From assembly GCA_016215315.1 (NCBI GenBank), contig JACRKG010000045.1:19204-83203 (forward strand): 64,000 nucleotides of DNA, given 5' to 3'. How positions within the stretch are numbered: the first letter of the stretch is position 1; every line of letters begins with the position of its first letter. This DNA is from Candidatus Woesearchaeota archaeon. Its GTDB lineage: Archaea > Nanobdellota > Nanobdellia > Woesearchaeales > ARS49. This document shows, piece by piece, positions 1,224-48,497 of the stretch. Both the position numbers and the translations under genes were made by a program. The notes under the pieces are model-generated. The model was not told the origin of the DNA, searched no databases, and worked only from the letters and a program-made list of their open reading frames with translations.

Positions 1224-1621
1224 AAGTTGTCATAACTTTAATTTCTTTTCTGAACCTTTTAGATTTTCCCCTGGTCGCCTGCAAATTAGTTCACGGTTCG
1301 CAGTTTATGGTTTACAGGACGCACTGCAAACTACGAACCATAAACTATGAACCTAAAGGCAGGCGGAACATAGACGCCGCGATAAAATACTGGGTATCTG
1401 AGGTATCATTTGATATCATAGACATTACTGGGTGTCGGGAGAATTGATAACAGAATAGTTTTAAAAGTGCACACTAAAAACTTATCTACTTTTTTATCAA
1501 CTGTTATTGTCGCCAAAACAATTAAAAAACTCAACATGCACATTCAGAAAGGCGACCTGAGCTAAGAAAATTTTCTTGAAATTTAATAAATTCTTTGAGA
1601 ATTTTAATATTATGGAGATTT

Positions 1622-12749: not shown

Positions 12750-13162
12750 ACGCAGGAAAAGCACTAAAAAGAAGAAGACACGTAAGCAAATTACTAAAAA
12801 AAGATTTTGTTAGAAGACTCTTCGAACTAAAAAGAAAAGCAGACCCACTAAGAGGATCATCACAAGCTAAAGGACTAGTTCTAGAAAAAATAGAATTAGA
12901 AGCAAAACAACCAAACAGCGCAAAAAGAAAATGCTGCAGAGTACAATTAATAAAAAACAACAAACAAATCACTGCATTCATGCCAGGCGATGGTGCACAA
13001 AAATTAATTGACGAACACGACGAAGTAATAGTAGAATGCATCGGCGGTCCAATGGGAAAAAGCAAAGGAGACATCCCAGGAGTAAGATGGCAAGTAATCA
13101 AAGTTAACGATCAAAGCTTACGAGACTTAAGAAGCGGAAAATTGGAGAAAGCAAGGAAATGA
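12725..13162 (+). CDS. rps12: Ribosomal protein S12 (uS12)
   Basis: [14 protein letters not shown]...TAFMPGDG motif. Confidence 0.9.
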
Positions 13163-13758
13163 GCGAAGTATTAGTATTCAACAAATGGAGTGCTCAAGGA
13201 GCAAAAGTAGTAGATCCGGGATTAATAGATTACATAAGTGTAAAACCAGTCTACGTACCAAAAACCGCAACAAGATATGCAGGCCACAGATTCAGAAAAT
13301 CAAAACTATTCATAGTAGAAAGATTAATCAACAAAGTAATGGTGCCAGGCCACAGAGCAAAAAAACACAGAAAAAGTTCAGGACACCAAACAGGAAAAGC
13401 AGTAAAGGCATACCAAATAGTAGAAAAAGCACTAATACTAATCGAACAAAGACTAAAAAAAAATCCAATAGAAGTAGTAGTTAAAGCAGTAGAAAACGGA
13501 GCACCAAGAGAAGAAATAGTAACAATAGAATACGGTGGAGCAAGATATCCAAAAGCAGTAGAATGCGCACCACAAAGAAGAATAGATATAGTACTAAAAT
13601 ACTTCATAAACAGTGCTTACGACAAATCATTCAAAAGCAAAAAAAGCATAGAAGAAAGCTTAGCAGAAGAAATAATTGCAGCATACAGGCTTGATCCAAA
13701 AAGTTTGGCAATTTCTAAAAAAAACGAAATGGAAAGACAAGCAGACGCAAGCAGATAA
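13159..13758 (+). CDS. rps7: Ribosomal protein S7 (uS7)
   Basis: S7 family sequence, operon position. Confidence 0.9.
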
Positions 13759-13800
13759 AACTAGTTCACAGTTTGTGGTCTACAGTTTACAGTAAAAAAG

Positions 13801-14007
13801 GTGATAAAAATTAAAAAAATATTCAATTGGATATCATTGGTGCTTTCTGCATATACAACTCTTGCTTTTTTAACATCCTTCTTTGTTCCAAGCATAAAAC
13901 TAACACCAATACCAGCACAATACTCAGCAGTACTACCAATATATCTAGGATTTGTATTAACATTTGCAGTATTGTTTAATGGAATTGCTGCAGTATTAAA
14001 AGAATAA
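13801..14007 (+). CDS. Small hydrophobic protein (2 predicted TM helices)
   Basis: 68-aa hydrophobic ORF; weak support. Confidence 0.3.
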   Translation: MIKIKKIFNWISLVLSAYTTLAFLTSFFVPSIKLTPIPAQYSAVLPIYLGFVLTFAVLFNGIAAVLKE

Positions 14008-14064
14008 TTCTTTCTTGAATTTGTTAAAAACTCTATTTTGTTTCTTATCTTACTTAAATTTTCT

Positions 14065-14183
14065 CAGTTTCAGTCGCCACGAAGAGTGTGCCAGTAGAGT
14101 TTCTTAATTATTCTAGCGACAAAGACAGTTGATAAAAAAGTAGAAAGAATTTTTTGAGTGCACGTGAATTACTTTTCAGTTAT
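14065..14183. repeat. Copy A of a repeated non-coding element (agtagagtttcttaat...gcgaca...ataaaaa...ttttgagtgcac...acttttcagttat)
   Basis: Aligns along about 120 nt with 37347-37470; ends in the 37-bp direct repeat 14147-14183. Confidence 0.6.
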
Positions 14184-14185
14184 AC

Positions 14186-14638
14186 TTAATCCTTGAACAA
14201 ATCTCTATATTTATCATCGAATTGGATGTAAATATTCTTTGCGTAGTTTATTTTAAGGTATGATTCCGCACTTGATTTTAATGCGTTGTCTAGTCTTTTA
14301 AAATAACCTTTCATTGTACTAAAAACGCTTAAAGCTTCAGCATAATTTTGACTTTGATTATTTACTTTAAAATCCAAGTTTAATGCAAGCTCTACGTGAT
14401 CTCTTAAACTATGAACTTTTTTGTTCATCGGAATACCTTCTTTTTTAATGACTTCATCAATCGAGTTCATTATCAAACAAAGTTCGCTTATTTCTTTACT
14501 TCCAGTTCCAACTTCTCTAACAATGCGTTTTGTTTCCGCTTTTTCTTTGACCTTTCTAATAGTGGTTTCAGCTTTACTTTTATTCAAAGCATCCATTTTA
14601 GAATTATCCCTTGGCGGAGTAGGACTAGACCATGGCAT
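14186..14638 (-). CDS. Hypothetical protein (150 aa) carried in a cassette flanked by 37-bp direct repeats
   Basis: ORF preceded by conserved leader with GAGGTG Shine-Dalgarno. Confidence 0.55.
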   Translation of the reverse strand: MPWSSPTPPRDNSKMDALNKSKAETTIRKVKEKAETKRIVREVGTGSKEISELCLIMNSIDEVIKKEGIPMNKKVHSLRDHVELALNLDFKVNNQSQNYAEALSVFSTMKGYFKRLDNALKSSAESYLKINYAKNIYIQFDDKYRDLFKD

Positions 14639-15377: not shown

Positions 15378-15827
15378 TTAACTTAACAACATCTCTAATT
15401 CAAATTTTTCGCCACCTAGCATAACATGAGGAACACTTTTTCTTGACTTTGCTGGAATGTATAATTGTTGAGTTCCTGCTCCTTCATAGAATGAAAAATC
15501 CAAAATTGTTGTTCCGCCATCTCTCTGTACTTCAACGTTAAGAATGCTTGCTTCTACTAATTTGTTTTGTTGTCCTACATGCAATCTCAAACCTTTATGA
15601 TCTGCACTGCTTCTTTCTCCTGCTTTAGGTTCATGAATGACATAATAAATAGTGCCATATTCTCTTGTGATTCGTGCAATGTGTGTTAGTTCATCTTGTT
15701 CGGGAAGTCCTGTTACAGTTAATTCTCCATATATTAAGTTCAATTGTACACAGGATAAATTTTCTTTACTTTCTACTTTAAATCGGTTGGCCAAATTTAT
15801 TGTCACATTTTTTACCATTTTATTCAC
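15378..15827 (-). CDS. Hypothetical protein (149 aa)
   Basis: ORF; 3' gene of minus-strand trio. Confidence 0.5.
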   Translation of the reverse strand: MNKMVKNVTINLANRFKVESKENLSCVQLNLIYGELTVTGLPEQDELTHIARITREYGTIYYVIHEPKAGERSSADHKGLRLHVGQQNKLVEASILNVEVQRDGGTTILDFSFYEGAGTQQLYIPAKSRKSVPHVMLGGEKFELEMLLS

Positions 15828-15861
15828 CTTTAAAAATATAAATTATAAACTGCAAATTATT

Positions 15862-17349
15862 TCAAAAACCACTACCGCTGGAGAAACTTCCTCCACCGAA
15901 TCCTCCGCCGCTTGAATGAGATCCGCCTCCGAATCCTCCGAAAGAAGAACTGCTACTTGAACTGTGATGACTGCTACTTCCTCCAAATCCACTGCTAAAT
16001 CCTCCAAATGAAGAACTGTCGCTATCATAAGAGTATGAAGGTCTTGGTTTTGGTTTAAATCTTTGATTTGCTTCAATTTGAGACCAAACACTGGTGTTTG
16101 TTATTCTTCCTAACAAGTATCCTGCAATCAATGAATCCATATCAAAACCACTTTCAAAATAAGATCTGCTTCCTTCATAATCCTTACTTCTATAATTATT
16201 TAAAATACTGTTCAGTCCATCTAATTTGTTGCTCACAGCATCTCTGGCTGCAATTGTTTCTTTTGCGTTATCTTTAAAATTTCTAACTTCAGTATCAATC
16301 TGTTCCATTCTATTAACTAAAGCATCATCCCTTGAGTCTGGAGTTTCTTTTGCCATTCTTTTTAAGTCTGCAATTGAATCTCCTTTCAAAAAATCTTTAA
16401 TTCTTTTAACTGCTTTCTCGTAATATTCTCCTTTAGTTGTATCTAATTCTTTTCTGTCTTGAGTGCATCTTTGGTATGCTTCTTCTTTTTGTTTTATTCT
16501 TTGAAGAATTTTTTCCCTTTCGTCACCTAAACTTGCTCCTTCCTTCATTACTTTAGGCAAGCCATAACTTTCTTGAACTTCTTTAACCATTGCTTCAACT
16601 TTAGAAGCAACTTCCTTGTAAGCACTTTGTCTTCTTTCTAATTCTGCGTCCATTAATTCTGGCATCATCATTAAAAAATCATAATTCTTTTTATTTTCTT
16701 CAAAATTAACTAACCTTGCAACTGCTCGGTCCCAATTTCTAACTAATCTTCCATGATTGTATAATGGTGCAGGTTTTCCAAATTGTCTGTTTACTAGATA
16801 CATAAATAATTCGTTACTTTTGTATGCTTCAAGTTTCTTTTTTGCATCAGCTTTGAATTGTTCTAATGTTGTTTTGTTTTCAGCCAATTCTTTTCCTTTT
16901 ACTTCAGCTGTAGCATTTAATTGAGGATATTCATCTCTTCCAGCCAATTCAGCGTTAACTTTTTCAACTATTGCATCCCTCTCTTCTGCTTTTTGGTTTA
17001 ATTGATCTGTTACAACTGCTAATCTTGATTCTAGAAGTCCTTTATCGTTAAGTGCAGACTGCATTTGACCTTCTAAGCTTTCTCTGAGTGCTTGTTTTTG
17101 TCTAAATACATCTTTTACTTGCGCTTGAACTTGTTTTAAAGTTGTTTCAACTGATTTAGCGTCAAGTTCTGGTAAGTAAATGAGTGCTAAATTACTTAAA
17201 CACCTTTCTCTTTCATTCATTAAAGAATCAATTTTGTTCTCATAATTAGTTAGTTGAGTGCTTAAACTATTTTGTTTTGATTGCAACTCATTCACTTTTC
17301 CTCTAATTTTACTCTCTCCGTCGCTTCCGCTTATACTCATTTTTACCAA
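15862..17349 (-). CDS. Coiled-coil protein with C-terminal Gly/Ser/Phe-rich low-complexity tail
   Basis: Heptad-rich helical segments; tail SYSYDSDSSSFGGFSSGFGGSSSHHSSSSSSSFGGFGGGSHSSGGGFGGGSFSSGSGF. Confidence 0.6.
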   Translation of the reverse strand: MVKMSISGSDGESKIRGKVNELQSKQNSLSTQLTNYENKIDSLMNERERCLSNLALIYLPELDAKSVETTLKQVQAQVKDVFRQKQALRESLEGQMQSALNDKGLLESRLAVVTDQLNQKAEERDAIVEKVNAELAGRDEYPQLNATAEVKGKELAENKTTLEQFKADAKKKLEAYKSNELFMYLVNRQFGKPAPLYNHGRLVRNWDRAVARLVNFEENKKNYDFLMMMPELMDAELERRQSAYKEVASKVEAMVKEVQESYGLPKVMKEGASLGDEREKILQRIKQKEEAYQRCTQDRKELDTTKGEYYEKAVKRIKDFLKGDSIADLKRMAKETPDSRDDALVNRMEQIDTEVRNFKDNAKETIAARDAVSNKLDGLNSILNNYRSKDYEGSRSYFESGFDMDSLIAGYLLGRITNTSVWSQIEANQRFKPKPRPSYSYDSDSSSFGGFSSGFGGSSSHHSSSSSSSFGGFGGGSHSSGGGFGGGSFSSGSGF

Positions 17350-18833
17350 CTCGTAATTTGACCCGTTCTTTGTGATACTCCTGGAAATTTAACTACTTCT
17401 TTTAAGTATCCTGCTTTCTTTTCTGAAAATAAAGTTTTATCAACACGACCATTATCCATTTTATCCGCTTTTACTGCTTCGTACACTTCAGAAGGAACTC
17501 TCTCTCCCCACATTCTAACTGAATGAATTTGCCCACTTTGTTCGTCAGTATTTTCTATTTGTCTGGCAATTGTGTTCCCATTTTGATCTACTGCTTCAAC
17601 TATCAAATAAAATCCTGCCAGTCTTTTTCCTGCGTTGTCGGTGTAATATCTATCAATTCCGCTTTTAACGCCAGATTTGTTAACAATTCTTACAGTATAC
17701 TCTTGTTTCAAAACAGCATCCAAACTTTCTAATGATGCAATTGTTGTTTTCAAAGAAGCAATATCAACACTGCTAACGTAATTTCTTCCTTTAGTATGTA
17801 AGTCTTCTGCTTGAGAATTTGCTTCTGGATCTTGTGATACAATTCTTACCGAACTATAAACTTGCTCTAATCTTGCAGGCAATGTTTCAAATTCTTTAAC
17901 GCCTAATTTTATTTCAACTAATTGTTGTTTGTAATTTATTCCTTCTTGTAATTGTCTATTTGTTATGCTTGCAATACCACTGTCATAAGCACTTTGTGCT
18001 TTTGTTCTTAATACTGCTGGTGGATTGCTGCTTTTTATTTCTTGAATTAAAGAATCTAAACTCTGTCTTGTTGCTACTAAATCTTGTTCTGTTCTAATCA
18101 ATCCTTGGCCAGTATTCACTTTGCCTTTAACGGTTGCAAGAACTCCATTGATAGAATCTAATTTTTGTTCTGCTTCTTTATAATTACTTTGATTAATATC
18201 ATCACTTGCTGTGCCATCATCACAATATGTTTCAAAAAAATCATCAGTGCTTCTTAAGTTGTCCCCTGCATTTCTAATTAATTCAGTTAATTCAGTAGAA
18301 TCAGGTAATGAATTTTTTTGAGAATTTAAGTCCTTGATTTGGTTTGCTAAATTTAATCTTGCTTTGTAACTGTCTTCAACAGCACTTTCAACACCGCTTT
18401 CTGCAGCTCTTAATGTTATTGCATTTACAGCAATTGAACCAACATAAACTATTGTTGATAATGCTAAAACAGCCAAAGTAGGAATTCCATATTTTCTTCC
18501 TATTCTTGCTCTGTTAACGTAAGCTCTTGCTAGTTTTGTTGAGAATGTATTTTCAGGTCCTTGAAAAACATAGAACTCATCAAAATATCTTTGAACTGCT
18601 AAATCGGTAGCTTCTTCACTACGATCTGATCCAGTGAATTTGTTTGAAGAGAGAAGTTTTTGTTTATATTTTTCTTTTAATTGATTGACGTTAAATTGTT
18701 CTGCAGCACTATCCATTAATTTTTGGATATCATCAGCATCTGCATTAATCTTCAATGTTTTTACCATTTCAGGATTAACAGGAATGTCTCCAACCATACC
18801 ATCTTTTGCTATTTCTTGATCTTGTTGAGTCAT
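17343..18833 (-). CDS. Membrane-anchored coiled-coil protein (single TM around residue 118-140)
   Basis: Hydrophobic helix IPTLAVLALSTIVYVGSIAVNAITL; 7-nt overlap with downstream gene. Confidence 0.6.
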   Translation of the reverse strand: MTQQDQEIAKDGMVGDIPVNPEMVKTLKINADADDIQKLMDSAAEQFNVNQLKEKYKQKLLSSNKFTGSDRSEEATDLAVQRYFDEFYVFQGPENTFSTKLARAYVNRARIGRKYGIPTLAVLALSTIVYVGSIAVNAITLRAAESGVESAVEDSYKARLNLANQIKDLNSQKNSLPDSTELTELIRNAGDNLRSTDDFFETYCDDGTASDDINQSNYKEAEQKLDSINGVLATVKGKVNTGQGLIRTEQDLVATRQSLDSLIQEIKSSNPPAVLRTKAQSAYDSGIASITNRQLQEGINYKQQLVEIKLGVKEFETLPARLEQVYSSVRIVSQDPEANSQAEDLHTKGRNYVSSVDIASLKTTIASLESLDAVLKQEYTVRIVNKSGVKSGIDRYYTDNAGKRLAGFYLIVEAVDQNGNTIARQIENTDEQSGQIHSVRMWGERVPSEVYEAVKADKMDNGRVDKTLFSEKKAGYLKEVVKFPGVSQRTGQITSW

Positions 18834-25094: not shown

Positions 25095-25191
25095 AAAAAA
25101 GTTTGCAGTTTGTAGTTTACAACCTGCAGTAGGGGAAATTCATTTAGAACCATTGCACTGTAAACTGTGAACTGTAAACTGCCAACCAGTG

Positions 25192-26370
25192 CTAGAACTT
25201 TATATCAACACCTAAAACCGCATTCCAACCATCTTTTTCTCCTTTTACAACATTCTCTAATAGATCTTTTTTATTATGCTCCACTTTAAGTCTTAAGTCA
25301 ACATTTTTTCTCAATGGTTTGTTTATTTGTAGGCCTGCGTTATATCCTGTGTGGTTGAATGAAAGATCTGTATCGACATAATAAAATGGGCTTAGCTTAA
25401 AATTTCCCAATTTTAAATTATTAACTTGCCCTCCTCCACGGTAAGTTTCAACTTTTCCATCACCAATAAAATTAACTGGAGTTGCAAAACTTAACTCAAC
25501 GGGATTTTTTCCCAAAGCATCAACAATTGAGCTCATATTGTAAAAAGTTCCCTCAGGTGTCAAGTAAGCATTAACTATGGGGGGAGTTACTATAATATTT
25601 TTTAAATACATTCTTGTGGGTCTTTTAACTGTACTATGGCCATCAATCAAATAACCAAGAACTACTTCAATACTATCATAAGTTTGCATAGTTAAAGCAT
25701 CAGCAAGGAATGCTTGAGCAAAATAATCTCCCTCAGTTAAATTAATATTTTTTTCATTAAGAAAAAAAATATAGCTATCAGGGTCTCCACCTTCTTCTTC
25801 GCTTGGACCAGTTAAAATGTAAAAATCATCATACCATTTATTCATTAAGAAAGACAACCCATCATGCACGCTTAGTTGATCTAAATTGTTTCTAAAAGTC
25901 AAATAAGAACTATACTCATCTTGATTTAGGCCTGCAGTAGATGCGTCAAGAGATTGCTCTAGGTCTGGTTCATAACGGAATAGTTTTATAAAATTTTTAT
26001 TAAGATCAAAAGGAGAGTTCCAATGGTACGCAACAGTCATATCACCGTATCTTTTTGCCGCTCGAACATGCCCGAATTCATGACTTGCAAATTTTAAAAG
26101 ATGAGTTAATTCATTATCAGCAAGTAATGCTAAAGTTCTAGTGCCAAAATTATTCTTCCAATTTTTATACAAATAATCACTTCCTTTACCAACTACTTGG
26201 TCTGAAGAATACCAATCATTACTGTTTGCTTCGAAATTAGTTATGGGATTGTTAAAGTCTATTTTTAATTCTCTTTGAGGTGAATTGATAGTTTGAGCTT
26301 CAACACTTGAAGGAATAAAAAAAGAGGTAGCTAAAACTAAAGATCCGACTAGATTTTTTAATACCCCCAT
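25192..26370 (-). CDS. Secreted HExxH zinc-metallopeptidase-like protein
   Basis: N-terminal signal peptide; HEFGH motif. Confidence 0.5.
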   Translation of the reverse strand: MGVLKNLVGSLVLATSFFIPSSVEAQTINSPQRELKIDFNNPITNFEANSNDWYSSDQVVGKGSDYLYKNWKNNFGTRTLALLADNELTHLLKFASHEFGHVRAAKRYGDMTVAYHWNSPFDLNKNFIKLFRYEPDLEQSLDASTAGLNQDEYSSYLTFRNNLDQLSVHDGLSFLMNKWYDDFYILTGPSEEEGGDPDSYIFFLNEKNINLTEGDYFAQAFLADALTMQTYDSIEVVLGYLIDGHSTVKRPTRMYLKNIIVTPPIVNAYLTPEGTFYNMSSIVDALGKNPVELSFATPVNFIGDGKVETYRGGGQVNNLKLGNFKLSPFYYVDTDLSFNHTGYNAGLQINKPLRKNVDLRLKVEHNKKDLLENVVKGEKDGWNAVLGVDIKF

Positions 26371-26407: not shown

Positions 26408-27778
26408 TTGACCAAAGAAATTATTGAAATATTGAAGATAATTTTCATAAATAATTTAAATGTTCAGTTAATTCTCAGTTTAATGATTCAAATAGCTTCA
26501 GAGCAGCCAAAAACTTGCGGTAGCGAAGGTTCTGGACAATTATCTGCTTCAGCTCAAGAAGAATTAGAAAAACAAGCATACAGAATTGTTGGAAGACATA
26601 GTGCAGTAAAGACTTGCGGCTGGACTAAAAACATGATTCGCGGTGAAGGCGGCTGCTACAAATTAAAGTTCTACGGCATAATGAGTCATCAATGCATGCA
26701 AATGACAACAAGTATTAGTTGTGCTAATAGGTGTACTTTTTGTTGGAGGGGCTACAAAGCACCAGTAGCAAAAGAATGGAAGTGGGGTGTTGATGATCCA
26801 GAATTTATTCTAGAAAATAGCTTAGAAGCACATCACGACTTAATTGTTGGCTTTAAAGGAGGTAAAAAAACAAACGAAAAATTATTTGAAGGTTCTCAAG
26901 AAGTAAAACATGTAGCTCTTTCACTGACTGGAGAACCTATAACTTACCCAAGAATAAATGAATTACTAGATTTATTTAATCAAAAAGGAATTTCTACTTT
27001 TTTAGTAACAAATGCGCAATATCCTGAACAAATAAAAAATCTTAAACCAGTAACTCAGCTTTATGAAAGCCTAGATGCACCAAACAAGGAATTACTTAAA
27101 GAAATTGATAAACCATTATTTATTGATTTCTGGGAAAGAGCAAATCAAAGTCTTGATTATTTGAAAGAAAAAAAACAAAGAACTTGTATTCGATTGACGA
27201 TAATTAAAGGAGTTAATGATGTTGAGCCAGAAAATTATGCAAAACTAATACTGAAAGGAATGCCTGATTTCATTGAAGTAAAAGCATACATGTGGGTCGG
27301 AGCATCAAGAGAAAGACTAAACAAAGCAAACATGCCATTACACGAAGAAGTAATTGACTTCACGAAAAAATTAATTCAATACTTGCCAGATTATGACATA
27401 GTTTCAGAACACATTCCTTCAAGAGTAATAATGTGCGCTAAAAAGAAATTCTTCAAAAATGGAAGATGGCACACGTGGATTGATTTCCCAAAATATCACG
27501 AACTAGTAAATTCCGGAAAAGAATTTGTGACAGCTGATTATTTGAAACCCACACCAAGTACAGGACTTTCAGGCAAAGGAACTATCGATAGAAGAAAAGA
27601 ATGGGAAGAAATAAAGTTAGAAAAAAAAGAAAAACAAAATGAGGAAAAACAAAACAAAGAAAAAGAATCTCAAGAAGTTTACGTTAACGAAACAATGCCC
27701 GAACTAGATTTCTGGCAAAAAAAAGAAGAACAAACAACAGAACAAAATACAGAACAAAAACCGCCAGGTGGATGCTAA
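26408..27778 (+). CDS. taw1: tRNA 4-demethylwyosine synthase (Taw1/TYW1, radical SAM); true start possibly 26483
   Basis: KTCGWTKNMIRGEGGCYKLKFYGI.SHQCMQM....CANRCTFCWR; CxxxCxxC; K/E-rich C-terminal extension. Confidence 0.75.
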   Translation: MTKEIIEILKIIFINNLNVQLILSLMIQIASEQPKTCGSEGSGQLSASAQEELEKQAYRIVGRHSAVKTCGWTKNMIRGEGGCYKLKFYGIMSHQCMQMTTSISCANRCTFCWRGYKAPVAKEWKWGVDDPEFILENSLEAHHDLIVGFKGGKKTNEKLFEGSQEVKHVALSLTGEPITYPRINELLDLFNQKGISTFLVTNAQYPEQIKNLKPVTQLYESLDAPNKELLKEIDKPLFIDFWERANQSLDYLKEKKQRTCIRLTIIKGVNDVEPENYAKLILKGMPDFIEVKAYMWVGASRERLNKANMPLHEEVIDFTKKLIQYLPDYDIVSEHIPSRVIMCAKKKFFKNGRWHTWIDFPKYHELVNSGKEFVTADYLKPTPSTGLSGKGTIDRRKEWEEIKLEKKEKQNEEKQNKEKESQEVYVNETMPELDFWQKKEEQTTEQNTEQKPPGGC

Positions 27779-27813
27779 AAAGTTTGTAGTTTGGTGTTTA
27801 TGGTTTACGGGAA

Positions 27814-28245
27814 TTATTCTCCTTTTTTCTTCACAACGCTAACAAAACAACTAGGTACTTTTCCCATTTTGTCTTCTGAAAAAAGATCACACATTCTTGC
27901 TCCTGAACCATTAGGTATATTTGTGGGAAATTTAACTATGTCACCTACTTCAATTTGGTCTTCTAAAGCTAGTAACGGTTTCGCAATTCGAGTATCTTCT
28001 ATCATTTCTTCATATATGCTGAAAGTATAAATTCCTTGTTCTGTTTCAACTTTTAATGCATAACTCATCTCGCTGATACTTATTGGTTCTTTTCTAAAAA
28101 TTGAGTTAGGATCATGATTCAAAAGAGGCACAGAGCCTAGTTCTTTAACAACTTTTCCTTGCAAATAATTTGTTGGTCTAGAATAACATCCTCCAAATAA
28201 AATGGTTAATGCAGCGATACTTAGCACTTTGTTTAAAGTTCTCAT
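27814..28245 (-). CDS. Lipoprotein, paralog 1
   Basis: Signal peptide plus Cys (LFGGCYS); conserved LQGKVVKELGSVPLL ... VPSCFVSVVKKKGE. Confidence 0.5.
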   Translation of the reverse strand: MRTLNKVLSIAALTILFGGCYSRPTNYLQGKVVKELGSVPLLNHDPNSIFRKEPISISEMSYALKVETEQGIYTFSIYEEMIEDTRIAKPLLALEDQIEVGDIVKFPTNIPNGSGARMCDLFSEDKMGKVPSCFVSVVKKKGE

Positions 28246-33710: not shown

Positions 33711-34049
33711 TTGTGGCATTCTCCATTAATGTTTGGTAATGCTTGGGCAAGATTATCTGGAATGGATAAAAAAATAAAAAAAGTAAGCAAGAGTAGTATG
33801 AATTTAGCTTACGGCGGAACTTTGGTAACAACCTTATTGACTGCTTTTGTGCTCTCTTTGTTTTTAGAAAAAATAACCTTGTTCGGTGAAGGTCTTTTCC
33901 TTGCATTCGCAATTTGGTTTGGTTTTTATGCAACTTCTCAATTAGGAATGGTTTTATGGGAACAAAAATCCTTCAAACTGTTTTTAATAAACAGCGGGCA
34001 TAGCTTAGTTGCGTTATTAGTTATGGCTGCAGTAATAATTGCAGTATAA
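33711..34049 (+). CDS. Small membrane protein
   Basis: 3 hydrophobic helices. Confidence 0.4.
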   Translation: MWHSPLMFGNAWARLSGMDKKIKKVSKSSMNLAYGGTLVTTLLTAFVLSLFLEKITLFGEGLFLAFAIWFGFYATSQLGMVLWEQKSFKLFLINSGHSLVALLVMAAVIIAV

Positions 34050-34118
34050 ACTATAAACTCCAAACTATAAACCAAGAACATAAATTTATTTAAACTCTTA
34101 TTTTAGAAGTAATTCTAA

Positions 34119-34862
34119 ATGAATGTGAAAGGGGGAGTTTACAGCACTGGAAGATTGTTAACTAACACAATAGATCCGGGCTTACTAGTTGGTTCAGGCA
34201 TGTTTTTCTCTGACACTTTAAAAATTCTTTCCCATGCTAATACTTCAAGTGATTTTATCGCTGCAGGTGTAACTGGATTTGCAGCATACTATCTTGCAAG
34301 TAGAGGTTTATTGTATTTTAAAGGAAGATTGGGTGTTTATTGCACAAAAAAAACAACAGAAGATGAAAAAGAATTTCCTTTTGAACATTCAGAAAAAATA
34401 GTTTTTGATGATGTTGAGGGATTAGAAATGCTTTTAGAAAATACGAGAAGTGATCACAAAATTGAATGGGGAACATTTTTTAATGCTCATGATGACAAAA
34501 CAAATGCAGTAATTAGTAACATTCTATCTCAGGAAGAAGTAAATCAAAGCGGGCTAATACTAGGTCAAGGTTTTGGGTACATAATGTATGATATTGCCGA
34601 AGCCAGAAAAAAATATCAAGGATTCCAACATTTTCATCCAACAGTTTTCACGAAAAAACTAGGATACCTCAATTATGCAATATCAAATGTTGACAGATTC
34701 GCACCACAAAACTGGCTAAACTTTATAACATTTAACCTACCAAACGGCCCAGAAATAATTGGATTTAATTCGAGATACAATTACATTCCTAAAGATAAAA
34801 CAAAAAGAGAATTAGTGAAGGCTACGCCAAGAGATGTTAAGAAATATCTTAAAGCATTCTAA
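34119..34862 (+). CDS. Hypothetical protein (247 aa)
   Basis: ORF. Confidence 0.45.
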   Translation: MNVKGGVYSTGRLLTNTIDPGLLVGSGMFFSDTLKILSHANTSSDFIAAGVTGFAAYYLASRGLLYFKGRLGVYCTKKTTEDEKEFPFEHSEKIVFDDVEGLEMLLENTRSDHKIEWGTFFNAHDDKTNAVISNILSQEEVNQSGLILGQGFGYIMYDIAEARKKYQGFQHFHPTVFTKKLGYLNYAISNVDRFAPQNWLNFITFNLPNGPEIIGFNSRYNYIPKDKTKRELVKATPRDVKKYLKAF

Positions 34863-37249: not shown

Positions 37250-37346
37250 GAAAAATACAAATAATTGATGGTTTATAAGTTTTGTTCAAGAAAAGATTTG
37301 TAGAAGAGAATGTGTTAATTCTCTTGATTCTAGTTTACAAAAAGTT

Positions 37347-37525
37347 CAGTTTACGATTTGAAGTTTGTGTGTGAGTAGAGTTTCTTAATGGGCATGGCGA
37401 CAGCATCATGAGTCTATAAAAAGGTTGAAGAGTTTTGAGAGTGCACTCAAATAACTTTTCGTTTATTATTTTTCAACGCGCTAGCGTTGACAAAGTGTTC
37501 CGACCGCCTAAAAGTATAATTAAAC
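37347..37525. repeat. Copy B (apparently intact) of repeated non-coding element
   Basis: Contains agtagagtttcttaat, gcgaca, ataaaaa, ttttgagagtgcac, hairpin caacgcgctagcgttg, tgttccgaccgcctaaaagtataattaaac. Confidence 0.6.
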
Positions 37526-37619
37526 TTTACAAGCACAAGAAGCGAGCGTGTCGGCTAGGGGAAAATTAAAATCCAGATTAAAATTGAGCAAAGTTATTAA
37601 CAAAATAAAAATAGTAATT

Positions 37620-37913
37620 TTACTCCTCATATTTCTTAACTAGCTTTTCCAATTGATCTAAACTTAAATCTTCTTTTGGAAATTTTTCTAAGCCTATTTT
37701 TTTCAAAGCGTAAGCTCTTTCTATAATATCTACTTTTTTGTCAAAATTAATATCTGCATAACCACCAGGACCAAAAACTTTTTCAGTTAATTCTAGATAT
37801 TTTTCTTCTTTTTGTTTTTTTTCTATTTCTTTCTGTTTGTAAAAACTATGCTGACTGAAAGGATTAAGAGTTTTAGTCTCGGGATAAGAAATTAATGTGT
37901 TGGTTATTATCAT
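37620..37913 (-). CDS. Hypothetical small protein
   Basis: ORF. Confidence 0.4.
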   Translation of the reverse strand: MIITNTLISYPETKTLNPFSQHSFYKQKEIEKKQKEEKYLELTEKVFGPGGYADINFDKKVDIIERAYALKKIGLEKFPKEDLSLDQLEKLVKKYEE

Positions 37914-38155
37914 TAGTGTGTAAGCTGATCCACCTATGGCATAAATGATGTGTGACTAACCATGAACAAATTCTCTTGTTGATGAAAAATGATAACTCGA
38001 AAAATTTTCTGAAAAGTACTTAAAACTTCCAACTGGCAAAAAACTCCACAAAGGACGACCAAATACAGGCATAAAATTTAGTAAGTTCTCTTGTTTAAAT
38101 ATTTTTATCCTAATCGACAATTATTTTTATAAAGCTTATTGTATTAACACTGCTA

Positions 38156-39710: not shown

Positions 39711-39941
39711 TCATTTCTTATCATGCCACTTTTTAATTGATAGATAAACATATCCAACCAAAGAAGAAACCAAAAAGAATATCACAAAACTTGCAATAAA
39801 TCTTCCACCTAAGTAACCTAGTAATTCACTAAAAATCATATTGTTTTCTGGAGGATGTGTTGCTAAACTTAATACTGCCCAAATTAAAGAAACTATTGAA
39901 ATCTTTTTCCAGTACTTTTCATAAAAGTTTTTTATTTTCAT
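39711..39941 (-). CDS. Small membrane protein
   Basis: Two hydrophobic helices; 4-nt overlap with upstream gene. Confidence 0.4.
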   Translation of the reverse strand: MKIKNFYEKYWKKISIVSLIWAVLSLATHPPENNMIFSELLGYLGGRFIASFVIFFLVSSLVGYVYLSIKKWHDKK

Positions 39942-40777
39942 TTCTTTCTTTTTGATGTATTTGCTATCATTTGTTCACCTTTCTTGACTTCAATTTCCAA
40001 CTTTTTAATGTCTTCTTCGGGCGGAAGTTCTTCAGGTTTTATTCCTCTTTTATTTAATAATTTTCTAACATCTGCATTATTTCTCATGTGCTCTTTTGAT
40101 ATGCTTTTTTCTCCTTTCAGATCGTCTTTTTTAATACTAAAATTGGTAATTTCAGTAGCAAGATTTTTAGCAGTGATAGTTATTGTAGGAAGAAAATCTG
40201 CAAGCGGTCTGCTTTGAGGCACGCCAAACTTGTTCTTCATTTGTGCTGTAGTTTTACCTCCAAAAAGAACTTGATCGCCTTTACTTCTTATTCTCGCAAA
40301 ACCATCATCATCAACTCCCCGCTCATAAATTAATTTTGATAATTCAGTTTCTGAGGCGACAAGCTTCTGTCTAGCATTAAGTCTTTCAACAAGTGCGATT
40401 CTTTGTTCTATTAATTCTTGCTTTCTTGTTTGAACTGCAAAATAGCTTTGAGCAAATGCAATTTCTTCTTTTCTCGGATCCCCATTTTGAGCTATAAGAT
40501 AACAAGCGTATCTGGTGAGCATAATATCTTCAATTTCTCTTTTAGCTCCAGATCCGATATCTACCATTTTCTTAACGTCAGGAAAATGGTCATTTGTGCT
40601 GTGTCCTGACTTCTTGCAAGCTATTTTTGCTTTTTCAATAACATGAACAAAGTTCTCCCATTTATCATAACCTAATAGAACCTGTAAATCTCTGGCAAAC
40701 CAAAATTCAACTCCTTCTGCTTCTTGAGCATAGTCTTCAAATGTTTTTTTCAGTTTTTTTATTATCTCTTTTTCCAT
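39938..40777 (-). CDS. DNA-damage-inducible protein D (DinD)-family protein
   Basis: EFWFARDLQVLLGYDKWENF...KKMVDIGSGAKREIEDIMLTRYACYLIAQNGDP matches DinD N-terminal signature. Confidence 0.65.
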   Translation of the reverse strand: MEKEIIKKLKKTFEDYAQEAEGVEFWFARDLQVLLGYDKWENFVHVIEKAKIACKKSGHSTNDHFPDVKKMVDIGSGAKREIEDIMLTRYACYLIAQNGDPRKEEIAFAQSYFAVQTRKQELIEQRIALVERLNARQKLVASETELSKLIYERGVDDDGFARIRSKGDQVLFGGKTTAQMKNKFGVPQSRPLADFLPTITITAKNLATEITNFSIKKDDLKGEKSISKEHMRNNADVRKLLNKRGIKPEELPPEEDIKKLEIEVKKGEQMIANTSKRKK

Positions 40778-40786
40778 TTTTGACTC

Positions 40787-41356
40787 TTATTTTCTTGAAA
40801 CAAATTCTGAACCTTTAATATAAAATCTTAATAATTTCTCTTTTGCTTGGCTTATTCCTATTCTTTGTGTTGATACTATTTTAAAGTTTTCCTTTTTCCC
40901 TTGCATCAATTTTAAATCAGAATTCTTGCTTAACAAATCTGCTCCATCTTCATTTCTAGTTATTTCTAAAGCAATAGTTAATTTTGCAGGACCGCTACAT
41001 AAATTTTTCAGGTCATTTGTTTTGCGATTTTTCTTCATGACTTCAACACCTTCAACAGGTTCTAAAGCTCTAATTAGTATTGCTTCGCCAAAACCTTTGT
41101 TCGTAACAACATTAAAACAATAATGCATACCATAAGTAAAGTAAACATAAGAGATTCCGGGCTTGCCAAAAACAGACTTATTTCTTTCAGTTTTCCCTTT
41201 GAAAGCATGTGATGCGGGATCATTTTTCAAGTACGCTTCGGTTTCAACTATTTTACCAACTAAATTTTTGTGAACCAAATACTTACCTAACAGATTTCTG
41301 GCTATTTCAATGGTCGATTTGTTAAAAAAGGATTTTGGCAAAGTTTTAAGATGCAT
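40787..41356 (-). CDS. mpg: DNA-3-methyladenine glycosylase (Mpg/AAG family)
   Basis: GKIVETEAY...DPASHAF..KTERN..VFG.PG..YVYFTYGMHYCFNVV. Confidence 0.8.
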   Translation of the reverse strand: MHLKTLPKSFFNKSTIEIARNLLGKYLVHKNLVGKIVETEAYLKNDPASHAFKGKTERNKSVFGKPGISYVYFTYGMHYCFNVVTNKGFGEAILIRALEPVEGVEVMKKNRKTNDLKNLCSGPAKLTIALEITRNEDGADLLSKNSDLKLMQGKKENFKIVSTQRIGISQAKEKLLRFYIKGSEFVSRK

Positions 41357-41830
41357 GAATTCTATCTTTCTTAATCAGTATAAAAATCTAATTGTGCAAA
41401 AAACTTTGTTAGTTACAGGCTTTACTATGAACTCCAAACCACAAACTCCAAACCTTTTCACTGGACACCCTTTTTTTGGGAAATCTTGCAAAAAAATTGA
41501 AAATTTTCCCAAACTTTTGCTAAGAAATTCACTAAGAAAAACTGAATTCATCGTCTAATTTATCAAAAAACCAATACACTGCAAACTACAAGCTGCAAAC
41601 TATAAACTAGAGTTCACTGGACACTGGACATTTACCCGTAGGCTATTTAAACAAACCCTAGAATTAATATTTACTGGCAAGGCAAGAGAGAGTGAATATT
41701 TAAGTGCCCACGCATTTGAATATTCATTCCTTGAAACCTTGTCAGCTACCTTATATAAAAAGGTTTTGGTGAATAATTCAAAAAAGCAAATTTTACTAGC
41801 GTTAGCTCTAAAACACTTGGAGGTGAGAAA

Positions 41831-42187
41831 ATGAGCGAAAGTCAAAGTAGGTATAGTATCGTGGAAAGGTTAACTAAAACGAGACTTGAAATAATGGACT
41901 CAAAGGCAAGTCTTGAAGAAGACTTGAAGAAGAAAAAATATGAGATAGATGACTTGAAAAAACAGTTAACTGACTGGAATGAAGATATTAAAGAAATAGT
42001 GAGCAGAGAAAAAAGAAGTAAAGAAAGAGAAGTGGATGATGCTGAAAGAAGTTATGAGAATTCAAAACAGCATTTGGAAACTAAAAGAAAGGCATTTGAT
42101 GAGAAACTAAAAGCAATAGACTCGGCTCTTGAAAGCATAGAAGAAATTTCAAGAAGTGCTGCAGTTCAAGAAACGTCTCAGTCCTGA
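41831..42187 (+). CDS. Coiled-coil small protein
   Basis: GGAGGTGAG SD; K/E-rich heptads. Confidence 0.45.
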   Translation: MSESQSRYSIVERLTKTRLEIMDSKASLEEDLKKKKYEIDDLKKQLTDWNEDIKEIVSREKRSKEREVDDAERSYENSKQHLETKRKAFDEKLKAIDSALESIEEISRSAAVQETSQS

Positions 42188-45095: not shown

Positions 45096-45168
45096 TAGCT
45101 CCGCTCGGATTTGAACCGAGGTCTAGAGGGCCAGAACCTCTTATGCTTGACCACTACACCACGGAGCT
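45096..45168 (-). tRNA. tRNA-Gln(CTG)
   Basis: Reverse complement folds: acceptor AGCTCCG/CGGAGCT, anticodon stem AGAGG/CCTCT loop TTCTGGC, T-arm CTCGG-TTCAAAT-CCGAG. Confidence 0.7.
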
Positions 45169-47164: not shown

Positions 47165-47706
47165 TTATAATTAGCCCATGTTTGAGCTTGACCTTTGAAT
47201 TTTTCACTCGCTTCTATTCTGTGTATTACACTTTCATTACAAGGCTTATATTTTTTCTTTACTTCTTAATAAGCGGTGAAAACATGGTCAAACAAACTAA
47301 TGTATTTGAAAAGATTGAACAATTTAAAAATGTTTTGAAGCCTTTAACGGTTGGAAAAACAGATCAAGACATAAAATTAATGCTTTGTCATTGTAAGCAT
47401 TACAATCTCAGTCTAAGAAAAAGCTTAACTACAGAAGAATATGCTTTAAATGATTTTCTTATGAAAAAAGGTTTGAATGCTAAAACTATTTATGAAAATT
47501 TTGTATTCATAGATTATCCTCAAAGCATAAAGAACTTGTTAGCAGAGAGGAAGATTTCCATAAAAGAAGCGCAATCGCGTTTTATGGCAATTAAAAAATT
47601 GGTAAACGTGAGGGATGGTAAAGATTTAATGACTGAAATAAAATCAGTCATAAGGAGGTTAGAATGGTCTGGGCTCAACAAAACTATCACAACACAGGAA
47701 ATTTAA
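47161..47706 (+). CDS. Hypothetical protein (181 aa)
   Basis: ORF overlapping by 4 nt. Confidence 0.45.
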   Translation: MIIISPCLSLTFEFFTRFYSVYYTFITRLIFFLYFLISGENMVKQTNVFEKIEQFKNVLKPLTVGKTDQDIKLMLCHCKHYNLSLRKSLTTEEYALNDFLMKKGLNAKTIYENFVFIDYPQSIKNLLAERKISIKEAQSRFMAIKKLVNVRDGKDLMTEIKSVIRRLEWSGLNKTITTQEI

Positions 47707-48497
47707 GCAAAACTCAAGAAAAAAAGAGAAAAAGAAAAAGATTTCCTAATGTATTTTTCAAGAACGAAATAACTGAATTATTTGACAATATTGAAGATCT
47801 TAAAACGATGATGGCTAGTTTTTTGGCTTTCTTTTGCGCATTAAGAAATAGTGAAGTATGCAAACTAAAATGGCAAGATATAGACTTAGAAAACAAAAGA
47901 TTAAAGGTTGTGGACGGTAAAAACCACAAAGACGGATTTATACCAATAAGTTCTGTATGCATACCAATACTCAGAAAATGGCGGCAAATAAACTCTGAGT
48001 CAGAATATTTTTTGTCGGGGGAAGCAAAAGGGCTGCCGTTCTTAAGCTCGCATGCATTACTGGAGCGCTTTAAAGTTGCATTATCCAGAGCAAATCTTGA
48101 CATTCCAACAGAGAAAAATGCGGGAGGAAATCAACAGCATCAATACAAATTTCATACTTTGAGGCACTCTAGATGCACCCACTTATTGAACAATGGTGTG
48201 CCAATACAAAAAGTTCAGCACTTCATGAGGCACGACAAAATAGAAACAACAATGCATTACACGTGGATCTTAGACACAGAATTAAACAAAATGGTAGAAA
48301 AAGTTGATACTTCGCCAATGAAAATGTATCAAGAAATAATGCCGGAAAACAATCAATTTACTCAAACACAAACAATAGTGCAGCAAGAACACAGCAATCC
48401 AATAGAAATCGCCAAAAGACGCTTAGCATTTGGAGAAATCAGCCCCAGAGAATTTAAAAGAATAGTTGGAGTGCTTCAAACACCGCTAAGTGTCTGA
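47664..48497 (+). CDS. Tyrosine recombinase/integrase (XerC/XerD/phage integrase family)
   Basis: ALRNSE (R), HTLRHS (HxxR), RHDKIETTMHY (R/H...Y) catalytic signature. Confidence 0.75.
   Translation: MVWAQQNYHNTGNLSKTQEKKRKRKRFPNVFFKNEITELFDNIEDLKTMMASFLAFFCALRNSEVCKLKWQDIDLENKRLKVVDGKNHKDGFIPISSVCIPILRKWRQINSESEYFLSGEAKGLPFLSSHALLERFKVALSRANLDIPTEKNAGGNQQHQYKFHTLRHSRCTHLLNNGVPIQKVQHFMRHDKIETTMHYTWILDTELNKMVEKVDTSPMKMYQEIMPENNQFTQTQTIVQQEHSNPIEIAKRRLAFGEISPREFKRIVGVLQTPLSV

Follow-up and report, generated by a model that had tools for sequence, protein, structure and literature searches.

Intergenic arrays of a degenerate heptanucleotide in a Candidatus Woesearchaeota genome, a probable archaeal counterpart of bacterial heptamer repeat families

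Tandem repeats with a unit of seven nucleotides form dispersed intergenic families in bacteria, the known examples being the STRR sequences of cyanobacteria, the GGGAATC repeats of Xanthomonas, the GGGGAYT repeats of Nostoc and the TAACTGA repeats of Beggiatoaceae, Cyanobacteria and Bacteroidetes. Here we describe tandem runs of the degenerate heptamer GTTYRYR, 11 arrays at nine loci, in a 64-kb stretch of DNA from a Candidatus Woesearchaeota archaeon, a member of DPANN (contig JACRKG010000045.1, positions 19,204–83,203; hereafter the window, with coordinates counted from its first letter). We consider it probable that these dispersed, lineage-specific (GTTYRYR)3–5 arrays are the archaeal counterpart of the bacterial families. 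The arrays are excluded from open reading frames (ORFs), keep a fixed polarity at gene boundaries, pair only in convergent orientation and are specific to their lineage.

Later papers credit Mrazek et al. (2007) with the finding that heptanucleotide repeats outnumber all other classes of long simple repeat, and with the proposal of polymerase slippage as their origin. The GGGAATC repeats of Xanthomonas and the GGGGA(C/T)T repeats of Nostoc PCC 7120 were described by Rehm et al. (2015; PMC4692102) as having heterogeneous units, mostly four per array, 89–93% intergenic, with a mean distance of 28 nt to the ORF on the 5' side and 160 nt to the downstream ORF. Their four gene contexts accounted for 30–35%, 35%, 16% and 7–8% of the repeats, 70–75 convergent pairs were counted per genome, the arrays were dispersed genome-wide beside genes of no particular functional class, and no function was found (PMC4692102). 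TAACTGA direct repeats were reported by MacGregor (2015; PMC4679880) in marine Beggiatoaceae, Cyanobacteria and Bacteroidetes, with Cyanothece strains differing by insertions and deletions in steps of 7 nt. A 2022 preprint on Nostoc goes as far as speculating on a binding partner (10.1101/2022.06.06.494920). For archaea there is precedent at the level of one survey, which lists methanogens and a haloarchaeon with such repeats, and a literature search with the exact array strings of the window returned no relevant paper.

The repeat unit, its placement and its folding

The repeats are real and lie far above chance. Three tandem copies of GTTYRYR with at most two mismatches gave 22 overlapping matches in the window, against 0.06 expected from dinucleotide-preserving shuffles, none of which reached 22, and the permuted control unit GTTRYRY, scanned in the window, gave no match. 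A scoring scan returned 11 clusters where second-order Markov simulations gave 0.14, and 9 where they gave 0.02; a scan requiring only GTT every 7 nt returned 10 clusters against 0.79 expected, with the free positions emerging as Y, R, Y and R. When the window was scanned for purine/pyrimidine self-similarity with no motif given, period 7 alone stood out (eight clusters against 0.4). Tandem Repeats Finder (TRF) reported period 7 at 25100, 25157, 34045 and 41430, and at its lowest score setting it reported just four of the nine loci. An earlier note on this DNA had taken the unit for an octamer, but the motif-free scan returned nothing at period 8, and the eighth base is the G of the next unit. 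Related GTTTACAG-type runs are present at seven of the eight places that the earlier note gave (1262–1355, 13759–13797, 25099–25190, 27779–27812, 34050–34085, 41411–41460 and 41579–41612), whereas 37322–37346 holds one unit, with a weak array beside it (37349–37369), and the array at 15837–15857 was missing from that list.

Each array consists of three to five units in register, head to tail. The GTT core is nearly invariant (G in 43, T in 43 and T in 39 of the 44 units in the GTT-periodicity scan), and positions 4–7 are each divided between both pyrimidines or both purines in the order Y-R-Y-R. Position 4 has C and T at 13:29 and position 7 has G and A at 9:25, both near the genomic ratio; A is thus the commonest base at position 7, and GTTT makes up about two-thirds of the units. 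Adjacent units differ by 28 transitions and 11 transversions, where random change would give 1:2, and nearly every unit is unlike its neighbour, with one pair of identical adjacent units in all. The transitions look saturated, yet GTT and the purine/pyrimidine identity have been kept, so that neutral decay of a slipped repeat is insufficient to explain the pattern.

All nine loci are intergenic, within the 11% of the window that is non-coding (coding about 89%, G+C about 32%). Six of them begin at most 5 nt from a stop codon (5, 4, 5, 3 and 4 nt, and one overlapping), and at two of these the array fills the whole spacer (34 and 35 nt). Five of the six arrays that follow a stop read GTT on the sense strand of the upstream gene, the exception being the array at 34045–34079, and both inverted pairs of the window are convergent, a GTT arm followed by an AAC arm (2:0). 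The loci at 37349, 41426 and 41580 are located ahead of gene starts or within long spacers. The arrays therefore do form a dispersed extragenic family concentrated at gene ends, as the earlier note had seen it, whereas its statement that almost all copies sit immediately 3' of stop codons describes six of the nine loci but neither these three nor the array at 1289, which starts 65 nt past a stop.

Facing arrays had been noticed at two places as potential long hairpins, and both pairs (1289–1352 and 25101–25186) are predicted to fold as such in RNA, at −24.3 to −32.9 kcal/mol and with z scores of −4.1 to −5.8 in three of the four folds. Folding of the first pair (1280–1362) gave −24.3 kcal/mol with z −4.1 on the + strand and −30.7 kcal/mol with z −5.8 on the − strand, and the energies reached −36.4 and −43.1 kcal/mol, respectively, over 1255–1385. 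The second (25095–25192) gave −32.9 kcal/mol with z −4.1 on the + strand; on the − strand, which is the sense strand of the upstream gene and on which U6 follows the hairpin, it gave −24.8 kcal/mol with z −1.7. Both hairpins are weak under DNA parameters, at −11 to −14 kcal/mol. As a general form of the family the hairpin does not hold, since it is limited to two of the nine loci and the single arrays fold like their shuffles (−11.7 to 0 kcal/mol, z −0.5 to +1.0). The array behind the S7 gene is predicted to be unstructured (−5.4 kcal/mol, z +0.3), as are the array at 27782–27809 (−1.3 and 0 kcal/mol) and that at 34045–34079 (0 kcal/mol), and no fold was predicted for the AAC-type strands of the latter two.

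Real partner arms were no more complementary to each other than random combinations of arrays (ranks 64, 28, 3 and 57 of 90), and pairing a GUU-type array with the complement of another, whichever two were taken, yielded about −22 kcal/mol per 28 nt. The arms thus fit no better than random ones, which indicates that the hairpin potential is a by-product of family membership and not of co-evolution between the arms. The spacers of the two pairs differ in length (8 and 37 nt) and are unrelated in sequence, and an all-against-all BLAST of the arrays with 150-nt flanks found nothing in common except the heptamers. Selection of the hairpin on the transcribed strand was considered with a wobble-pair test and set aside, the better strand at the 25.1-kb pair being the antisense one. 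The whole window, scanned against Rfam 15 at gathering score, yielded only a tRNA, and E-value scans of three array regions yielded sub-threshold noise.

Comparison with known families and occurrence elsewhere

The assignment to the heptamer class rests on a feature-by-feature match in the period of 7, the intergenic location, the polarity relative to ORFs, the convergent pairs and the number of about four units. The window family shares with the Rehm repeats (PMC4692102) a 7-nt unit with a conserved core and degenerate positions, a preference for four units, the intergenic location, dispersal beside genes of no one functional class, and convergent inverted pairs that are frequent while arrays between divergent genes are rare. 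Unlike those repeats, it has no G tracts, its host is a DPANN archaeon, and its arrays are shorter (three to five units) and more heterogeneous; the figure for its density refers to a 64-kb window. Because GTTYRYR has no G tracts, a G-quadruplex cannot explain the four-unit preference here.

The TAACTGA repeats (PMC4679880) are likewise intergenic heptamer direct repeats, in two to six copies, with a sporadic phylogenetic distribution, and the units are related, TAACTGA reading AACTGAT in the AAC register against AACYRYR here. Their polarity is also the same, with the AAC-type strand as the sense strand just ahead of starts and reversed past stops (PMC4679880). The Beggiatoaceae copies, however, lie mainly upstream of starts and the window arrays mainly just past stops, TAACTGA units are near-invariant where GTTYRYR has four variable positions, and a single indirect repeat was reported in that study (PMC4679880). 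The cyanobacterial STRR sequences, like the long simple sequence repeats surveyed by Mrazek et al. (2007) and by Huang and Mrazek (2014; PMC4060949), are heptanucleotide tandems, the commonest class of such repeats in prokaryotes; they are intergenic and sporadic, as here, but those surveys count near-perfect repeats and GTTYRYR arrays are too heterogeneous for most repeat finders of that type. The better label for the arrays is an intergenic heptanucleotide repeat family of the STRR, GGGAATC or TAACTGA kind.

The only other copies of the window DNA were two contigs of Logan, both identical to it; one of these, from an independent assembly, matches base for base over 14 kb that include two arrays. 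Searches with proteins from the window ends gave at most an identical Logan contig of 4.9 kb. The S7 protein itself is 100% identical to one annotated from a metagenome-assembled genome of Candidatus Woesearchaeota. The next-best S7 homologues were 69–76% identical and labelled Woesearchaeota or Nanoarchaeia. In the S7-region loci of three related lineages (52 kb, 31–43% G+C) we found no array, where about nine would be expected at the density of the window, which makes the family lineage-specific within Woesearchaeota.

It is not genome-specific in the sense of the earlier note, since GTTYRYR arrays extend across many bacterial phyla and into viral contigs. A scan of prokaryotes (one genome per species) with four units followed by GT matched at least 120 loci, and four units matched at least 120 loci in viral contigs as well. 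Among the matches listed were genomes of Bacteroidota, Cyanobacteria, Acidobacteriota, Planctomycetota, Verrucomicrobiota, Saccharibacteria, Chloroflexota and Desulfobacterota and one other Woesearchaeote. Many of the long-array matches in the viral collection were giant-virus metagenome-assembled genomes (GVMAG; for example L131, L138, L143, L153, L171, L173, L180, L184 and L185), so that heptamer arrays are not limited to prokaryotic chromosomes.

Many of the listed bacterial arrays vary by transitions only, like those of the window, and many lie directly past a stop codon or directly ahead of a start codon on the opposite strand. For 60 solitary arrays among them the closer ORF, as called by a simple longest-ORF heuristic, lay 5' of the GTT strand, against 26 for which it lay on the other side (p = 3e-4), with median ORF distances of 24 and 90 nt, respectively. 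Their contexts were same-strand in 37%, opposite-strand co-directional in 41%, convergent in 16% and divergent in 6%. Arrays at the listed bacterial loci that had not been picked by the search pattern had a mode of four units, and inverted pairs had the GTT arm first and the AAC arm second in all cases, 16:0 at bacterial and 1:0 at viral loci among the matches listed. GTTYRYR arrays often adjoin other heptamers in the same spacer (L002, L013, L017, L023, L026 and L119), including CAATCAA, CTAACTG, GTATCGA, GTCCGAA, GTTGGTG and GTTGCCG, and different heptamers in one spacer mean that several unit families coexist in some genomes.

Individual arrays and their gene setting

The first inverted pair consists of array A1 (1289–1316, + strand; GTTCACG, GTTCGCA, GTTTATG, GTTTACA) as its left arm and array A2 (1325–1352, − strand; GTTCATA, GTTTATG, GTTCGTA, GTTTGCA) as its right arm. 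It lies in a 398-nt convergent spacer, with A1 65 nt past the stop of a PfkB/cytidylyltransferase gene (24–1223). An outer G+C-rich stem of CGCCTGC (1276–1282) and GCAGGCG (1358–1364) extends the hairpin to about 90 nt (1276–1364), and no T run stands behind it.

Array B (13764–13791, + strand; GTTCACA, GTTTGTG, GTCTACA, GTTTACA) lies 5 nt 3' of the stop codon of S7, the last gene of the rpoB-rpoA-L30e-NusA-S12-S7 cluster, where the earlier note had correctly placed a copy. This archaeal cluster has a split rpoB, rpoA' and rpoA'', followed by the genes for L30e, NusA, S12 and S7. Genes for EF-2, EF-1alpha and S10 are expected 3' of S7 in archaea; in the region 13159–14186, however, S12-S7 is followed by a 427-nt spacer and a convergent gene to which no function is assigned, with none of the three, and the related Woesearchaeota loci likewise have none of them behind S7.

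Array C (15837–15857, − strand; ATTTGCA, GTTTATA, ATTTATA) fills a 34-nt spacer, 4 nt past the stop of 15862–17349 and 9 nt ahead of the start of 15378–15827. Two neighbouring genes of paralogous size (495 and 496 aa) occupy 15862–18833 on the − strand; the second matches DUF6384, and the first contains in-frame tandem repeats of 33 nt and 21 nt at its 3' end (15875–15940 and 15970–16009).

The second inverted pair is formed by array D1 (25101–25121, + strand; GTTTGCA, GTTTGTA, GTTTACA) on the left and array D2 (25159–25186, − strand; GTTGGCA, GTTTACA, GTTCACA, GTTTACA) on the right, the latter 5 nt past the stop of 25192–26370. Array E (27782–27809, + strand; GTTTGTA, GTTTGGT, GTTTATG, GTTTACG) fills the 35-nt convergent spacer between a Tyw1-like gene (26408–27778) and 27814–28245. 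Array F (34045–34079, − strand; GTTCTTG, GTTTATA, GTTTGGA, GTTTATA, GTTTATA) overlaps the TAA stop of 33711–34049, the sense strand being of the AAC type, and ends 39 nt ahead of the start of 34119–34862.

Array G (37349–37369, + strand; GTTTACG, ATTTGAA, GTTTGTG) is weak and degenerate, with two mismatches; 100 nt of its long spacer separate it from the downstream start of a MazG-like gene (37249, − strand). Array H (41426–41453, − strand; GTTTGGA, GTTTGTG, GTTTGGA, GTTCATA) lies 70 nt upstream of the start of a methylpurine-DNA glycosylase gene (40787–41356, − strand) and shares a 474-nt divergent spacer with array I (41580–41607, − strand; GTTTATA, GTTTGCA, GCTTGTA, GTTTGCA). On the GTT strand array H is preceded by GTCCAGTGAA and array I by GTCCAGTG TCCAGTGAA, which is CACTGGA repeated 2.3 times on the + strand (41615–41630). 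Two exact copies of GTCCAGTGAA are the only ones in the window (41457–41466 and 41613–41622, − strand), each directly 5' of a GTT-strand array (H and I), and the second lies itself within the short CACTGGA run. An origin-recognition box was considered for GTCCAGTGAA and rejected, its 10/12 match to the archaeal core, which we take to be TCCAGTGGAAAC, not being above chance.

The spacers of these last three arrays, 41357–41830 (474 nt) and 37250–38155 (about 900 nt), are unusually long for an 89%-coding genome, and A/T-rich tracts as well as heptamer arrays are present in both. Small genes that escaped annotation, non-coding RNAs or regulatory regions could lie in them; a scan of 41350–41835 against Rfam gave no match. 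A gene with a Bro-N domain (39938–40777) lies nearby. The tRNA gene at 45096–45168 (− strand), the sole Rfam match of the window at gathering score, lies 2.5 kb from a gene for a tyrosine recombinase of the phage-integrase/Xer family (277 aa, 47664–48497, + strand), which is probably the housekeeping XerA.

Competing explanations and wider meaning

If the arrays are an archaeal member of the heptamer class, they would arise and turn over in 7-nt steps at the DNA level, by slipped-strand mispairing or unequal exchange, an origin suggested by the literature and by the long near-perfect arrays of bacteria. They would persist only at sites where ORFs and promoters stay unbroken. Conservation at the purine/pyrimidine level would point to some reader, most likely a protein that takes one unit per protomer, or wobble-tolerant pairing. 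Hairpins would be a by-product where two arrays converge, with neither hairpin nor terminator as the primary role; the hairpin and U6 at 25.1 kb would probably help to end or stabilise the upstream transcript, and GUUU units just past stops may give weak oligo-U pause signals in an A+T-rich archaeon.

Several points weigh against this assignment. Plain slippage predicts identical neighbours, yet nearly all units differ while GTT is intact and transversions are rare, from which it follows that slippage plus neutral decay is not the whole story. Changes in 7-nt steps are known from other organisms, and the copies of the window DNA are all identical. The occurrence of one family per genome fits copying, or selection by a binding partner, better than the random birth of microsatellites. 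In scans of viral contigs with eight units, GTTYRYR matched 25 loci and the permuted control 18, no clear difference; as the control unit is about as frequent, the cross-phylum GTTYRYR matches may reflect a general abundance of heptamers and not one homologous family. The heuristic ORF calls behind the bacterial polarity figures belong among these points as well.

An alternative, put forward by the earlier note and in our assessment unlikely, is that the arrays are dedicated terminators or insulators, whose GUUU-rich transcripts and paired hairpins halt the archaeal RNA polymerase after the stop codon. The six loci within 5 nt of a stop and the GUU-type strand being the sense strand at five of them agree with it, as does the excess of convergent over divergent spacers among the listed bacterial arrays. 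With about two-thirds of the units being GTTT, each array carries three to four U3 tracts, and within 60 nt of S7 there is, the array aside, no T run longer than 3. The 25.1-kb pair resembles a terminator most, its sense strand reading as a hairpin and then U6, although that hairpin is not significantly above shuffles (z −1.7). Archaeal intrinsic termination generally requires T5 or longer, however, and the longest T run inside the arrays is 3. An oligo-T terminator of the archaeal kind would have a T run of about 5 or more, and the longest in the 60 nt past S7 and past 25192–26370 is 3. A comparison of T runs with other genes was uninformative, since just 36% of those genes have T5 or longer within 60 nt. 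A general role is further disfavoured by the opposite orientation of array F, by the position of arrays G, H and I upstream of genes, by the lack of structure in single arrays, with no hairpin at seven of the nine loci, and by the related Woesearchaeota without arrays. Bacterial arrays of GTTC units have the same polarity with no U tract, and half lie upstream of starts, on the non-coding strand (PMC4692102).

It is equally doubtful, in our view, that the arrays are operator-like sites at which a sequence-specific protein, with one heptad per protomer on double-stranded DNA or single-stranded RNA, marks gene boundaries. The conservation of GTT and Y-R-Y-R with saturated transitions and few transversions, the narrow range of three to five units with a mode of four, the single family per genome with the permuted pattern absent from the window, and the fixed orientation to ORF boundaries with convergent pairs only would all be expected of such sites. 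Models for a binder include the ribbon-helix-helix omega repressor on WATCACW, HutP on NAG-N4 RNA and cold-shock domains. The omega repressor of pSM19035 binds tandem (WATCACW)n in direct and inverted arrangement, with one unit per protein dimer, and might by analogy serve as a model for how 7-bp units in direct and inverted arrays could be read; unlike the window arrays, its sites sit in a few plasmid promoters and not at dispersed gene ends, and their sequence differs. With A at position 7, the RNA of an array reads YAG-N4-YAG, which we take to resemble HutP sites in form. Against a dedicated protein stand unrelated heptamers (GGGAATC, TAACTGA) that show the same architecture in unrelated phyla, which would call for many binders or a sequence-independent property. 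None of the 40 window proteins scanned against Pfam points to a binder, no omega-like partner was identified among the window proteins, and the present data fit DNA and RNA binding equally.

A broader proposal, which we hold to be improbable, is that heptamer arrays are a general gene-boundary element of both domains with a common mechanism and one architecture whatever the unit sequence, namely about four units per array, an ORF of either orientation at the 5' end of the repeat strand, and convergent pairs. One speculative mechanism is growth of arrays in the 5' direction of the repeat strand, halted at an ORF; it would explain why arrays adjoin ORFs of either orientation, why pairs are convergent only and why divergent spacers, which bear promoters, have few arrays. 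When array ends were compared for older units, the 3' flank had 4.66 unit-like matches against 4.05, a figure biased by the trailing GT of the search pattern. Alternatively, a conserved machine might read about 28 nt of 7-nt-periodic single-stranded nucleic acid. If the proposal were true, for DPANN archaea to share the element with bacteria would mean that it reflects a universal feature of replication or repair, or else that the factor behind it has spread horizontally.

That the arrays are mobile elements of the REP/REPIN kind, or miniature inverted-repeat transposable elements (MITEs), spread by a hairpin-recognising transposase such as a RAYT-type Y1 enzyme, is very unlikely. The REP-like label of the earlier note is apt for the architecture, as the window family, like REP/REPIN sequences of proteobacteria, is extragenic, dispersed and lineage-specific, often lies at gene 3' ends and comprises convergent doublets with long hairpins as well as singlets, which is also the layout of REPIN doublets and REP singlets. 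It is not apt beyond that, because REP units are imperfect palindromes with a conserved head, an associated RAYT gene and no internal 7-nt periodicity, whereas the arrays here are tandem heptamers that singly are neither palindromic nor folded. The copies have only the heptamers in common, with unshared flanks and no target-site duplications. A scan of 40 window proteins revealed no Y1/RAYT or other transposase, the sole recombinase being Xer-like. MITEs were rejected on the BLAST with 150-nt flanks, in which the copies shared, beyond the heptamers, no internal sequence, terminal inverted repeats or target-site duplication. The attC sites of integrons follow the consensus RYYYAAC ... GTTRRRY, in which a site of AAC type precedes the core site of GTT type; they too were rejected, since the arm order here is reversed (GTT then AAC in 19 of 19 pairs, listed loci and window together) and the unit is GTTYRYR and not GTTRRRY.

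Chance clustering or low complexity can be dismissed for practical purposes, even in a genome of 32% G+C with A+T-rich spacers, given 22 matches against 0.06, 9–11 clusters against 0.02–0.14 and an independent assembly with the identical sequence.

Taken as an intergenic heptanucleotide repeat family, the arrays extend the host range of such repeats to a DPANN archaeon, beyond the methanogens and the haloarchaeon of one survey. Although free of G tracts, the family favours four units, lies against ORFs with the same polarity and forms convergent pairs only, so that these features would have a cause other than the G-quadruplexes discussed by Rehm et al. and seem general to heptamer arrays. The family is defined at the purine/pyrimidine level and is overlooked by ordinary repeat finders. 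For annotation this means that such arrays should not by default be called terminators, REPs or small RNAs.

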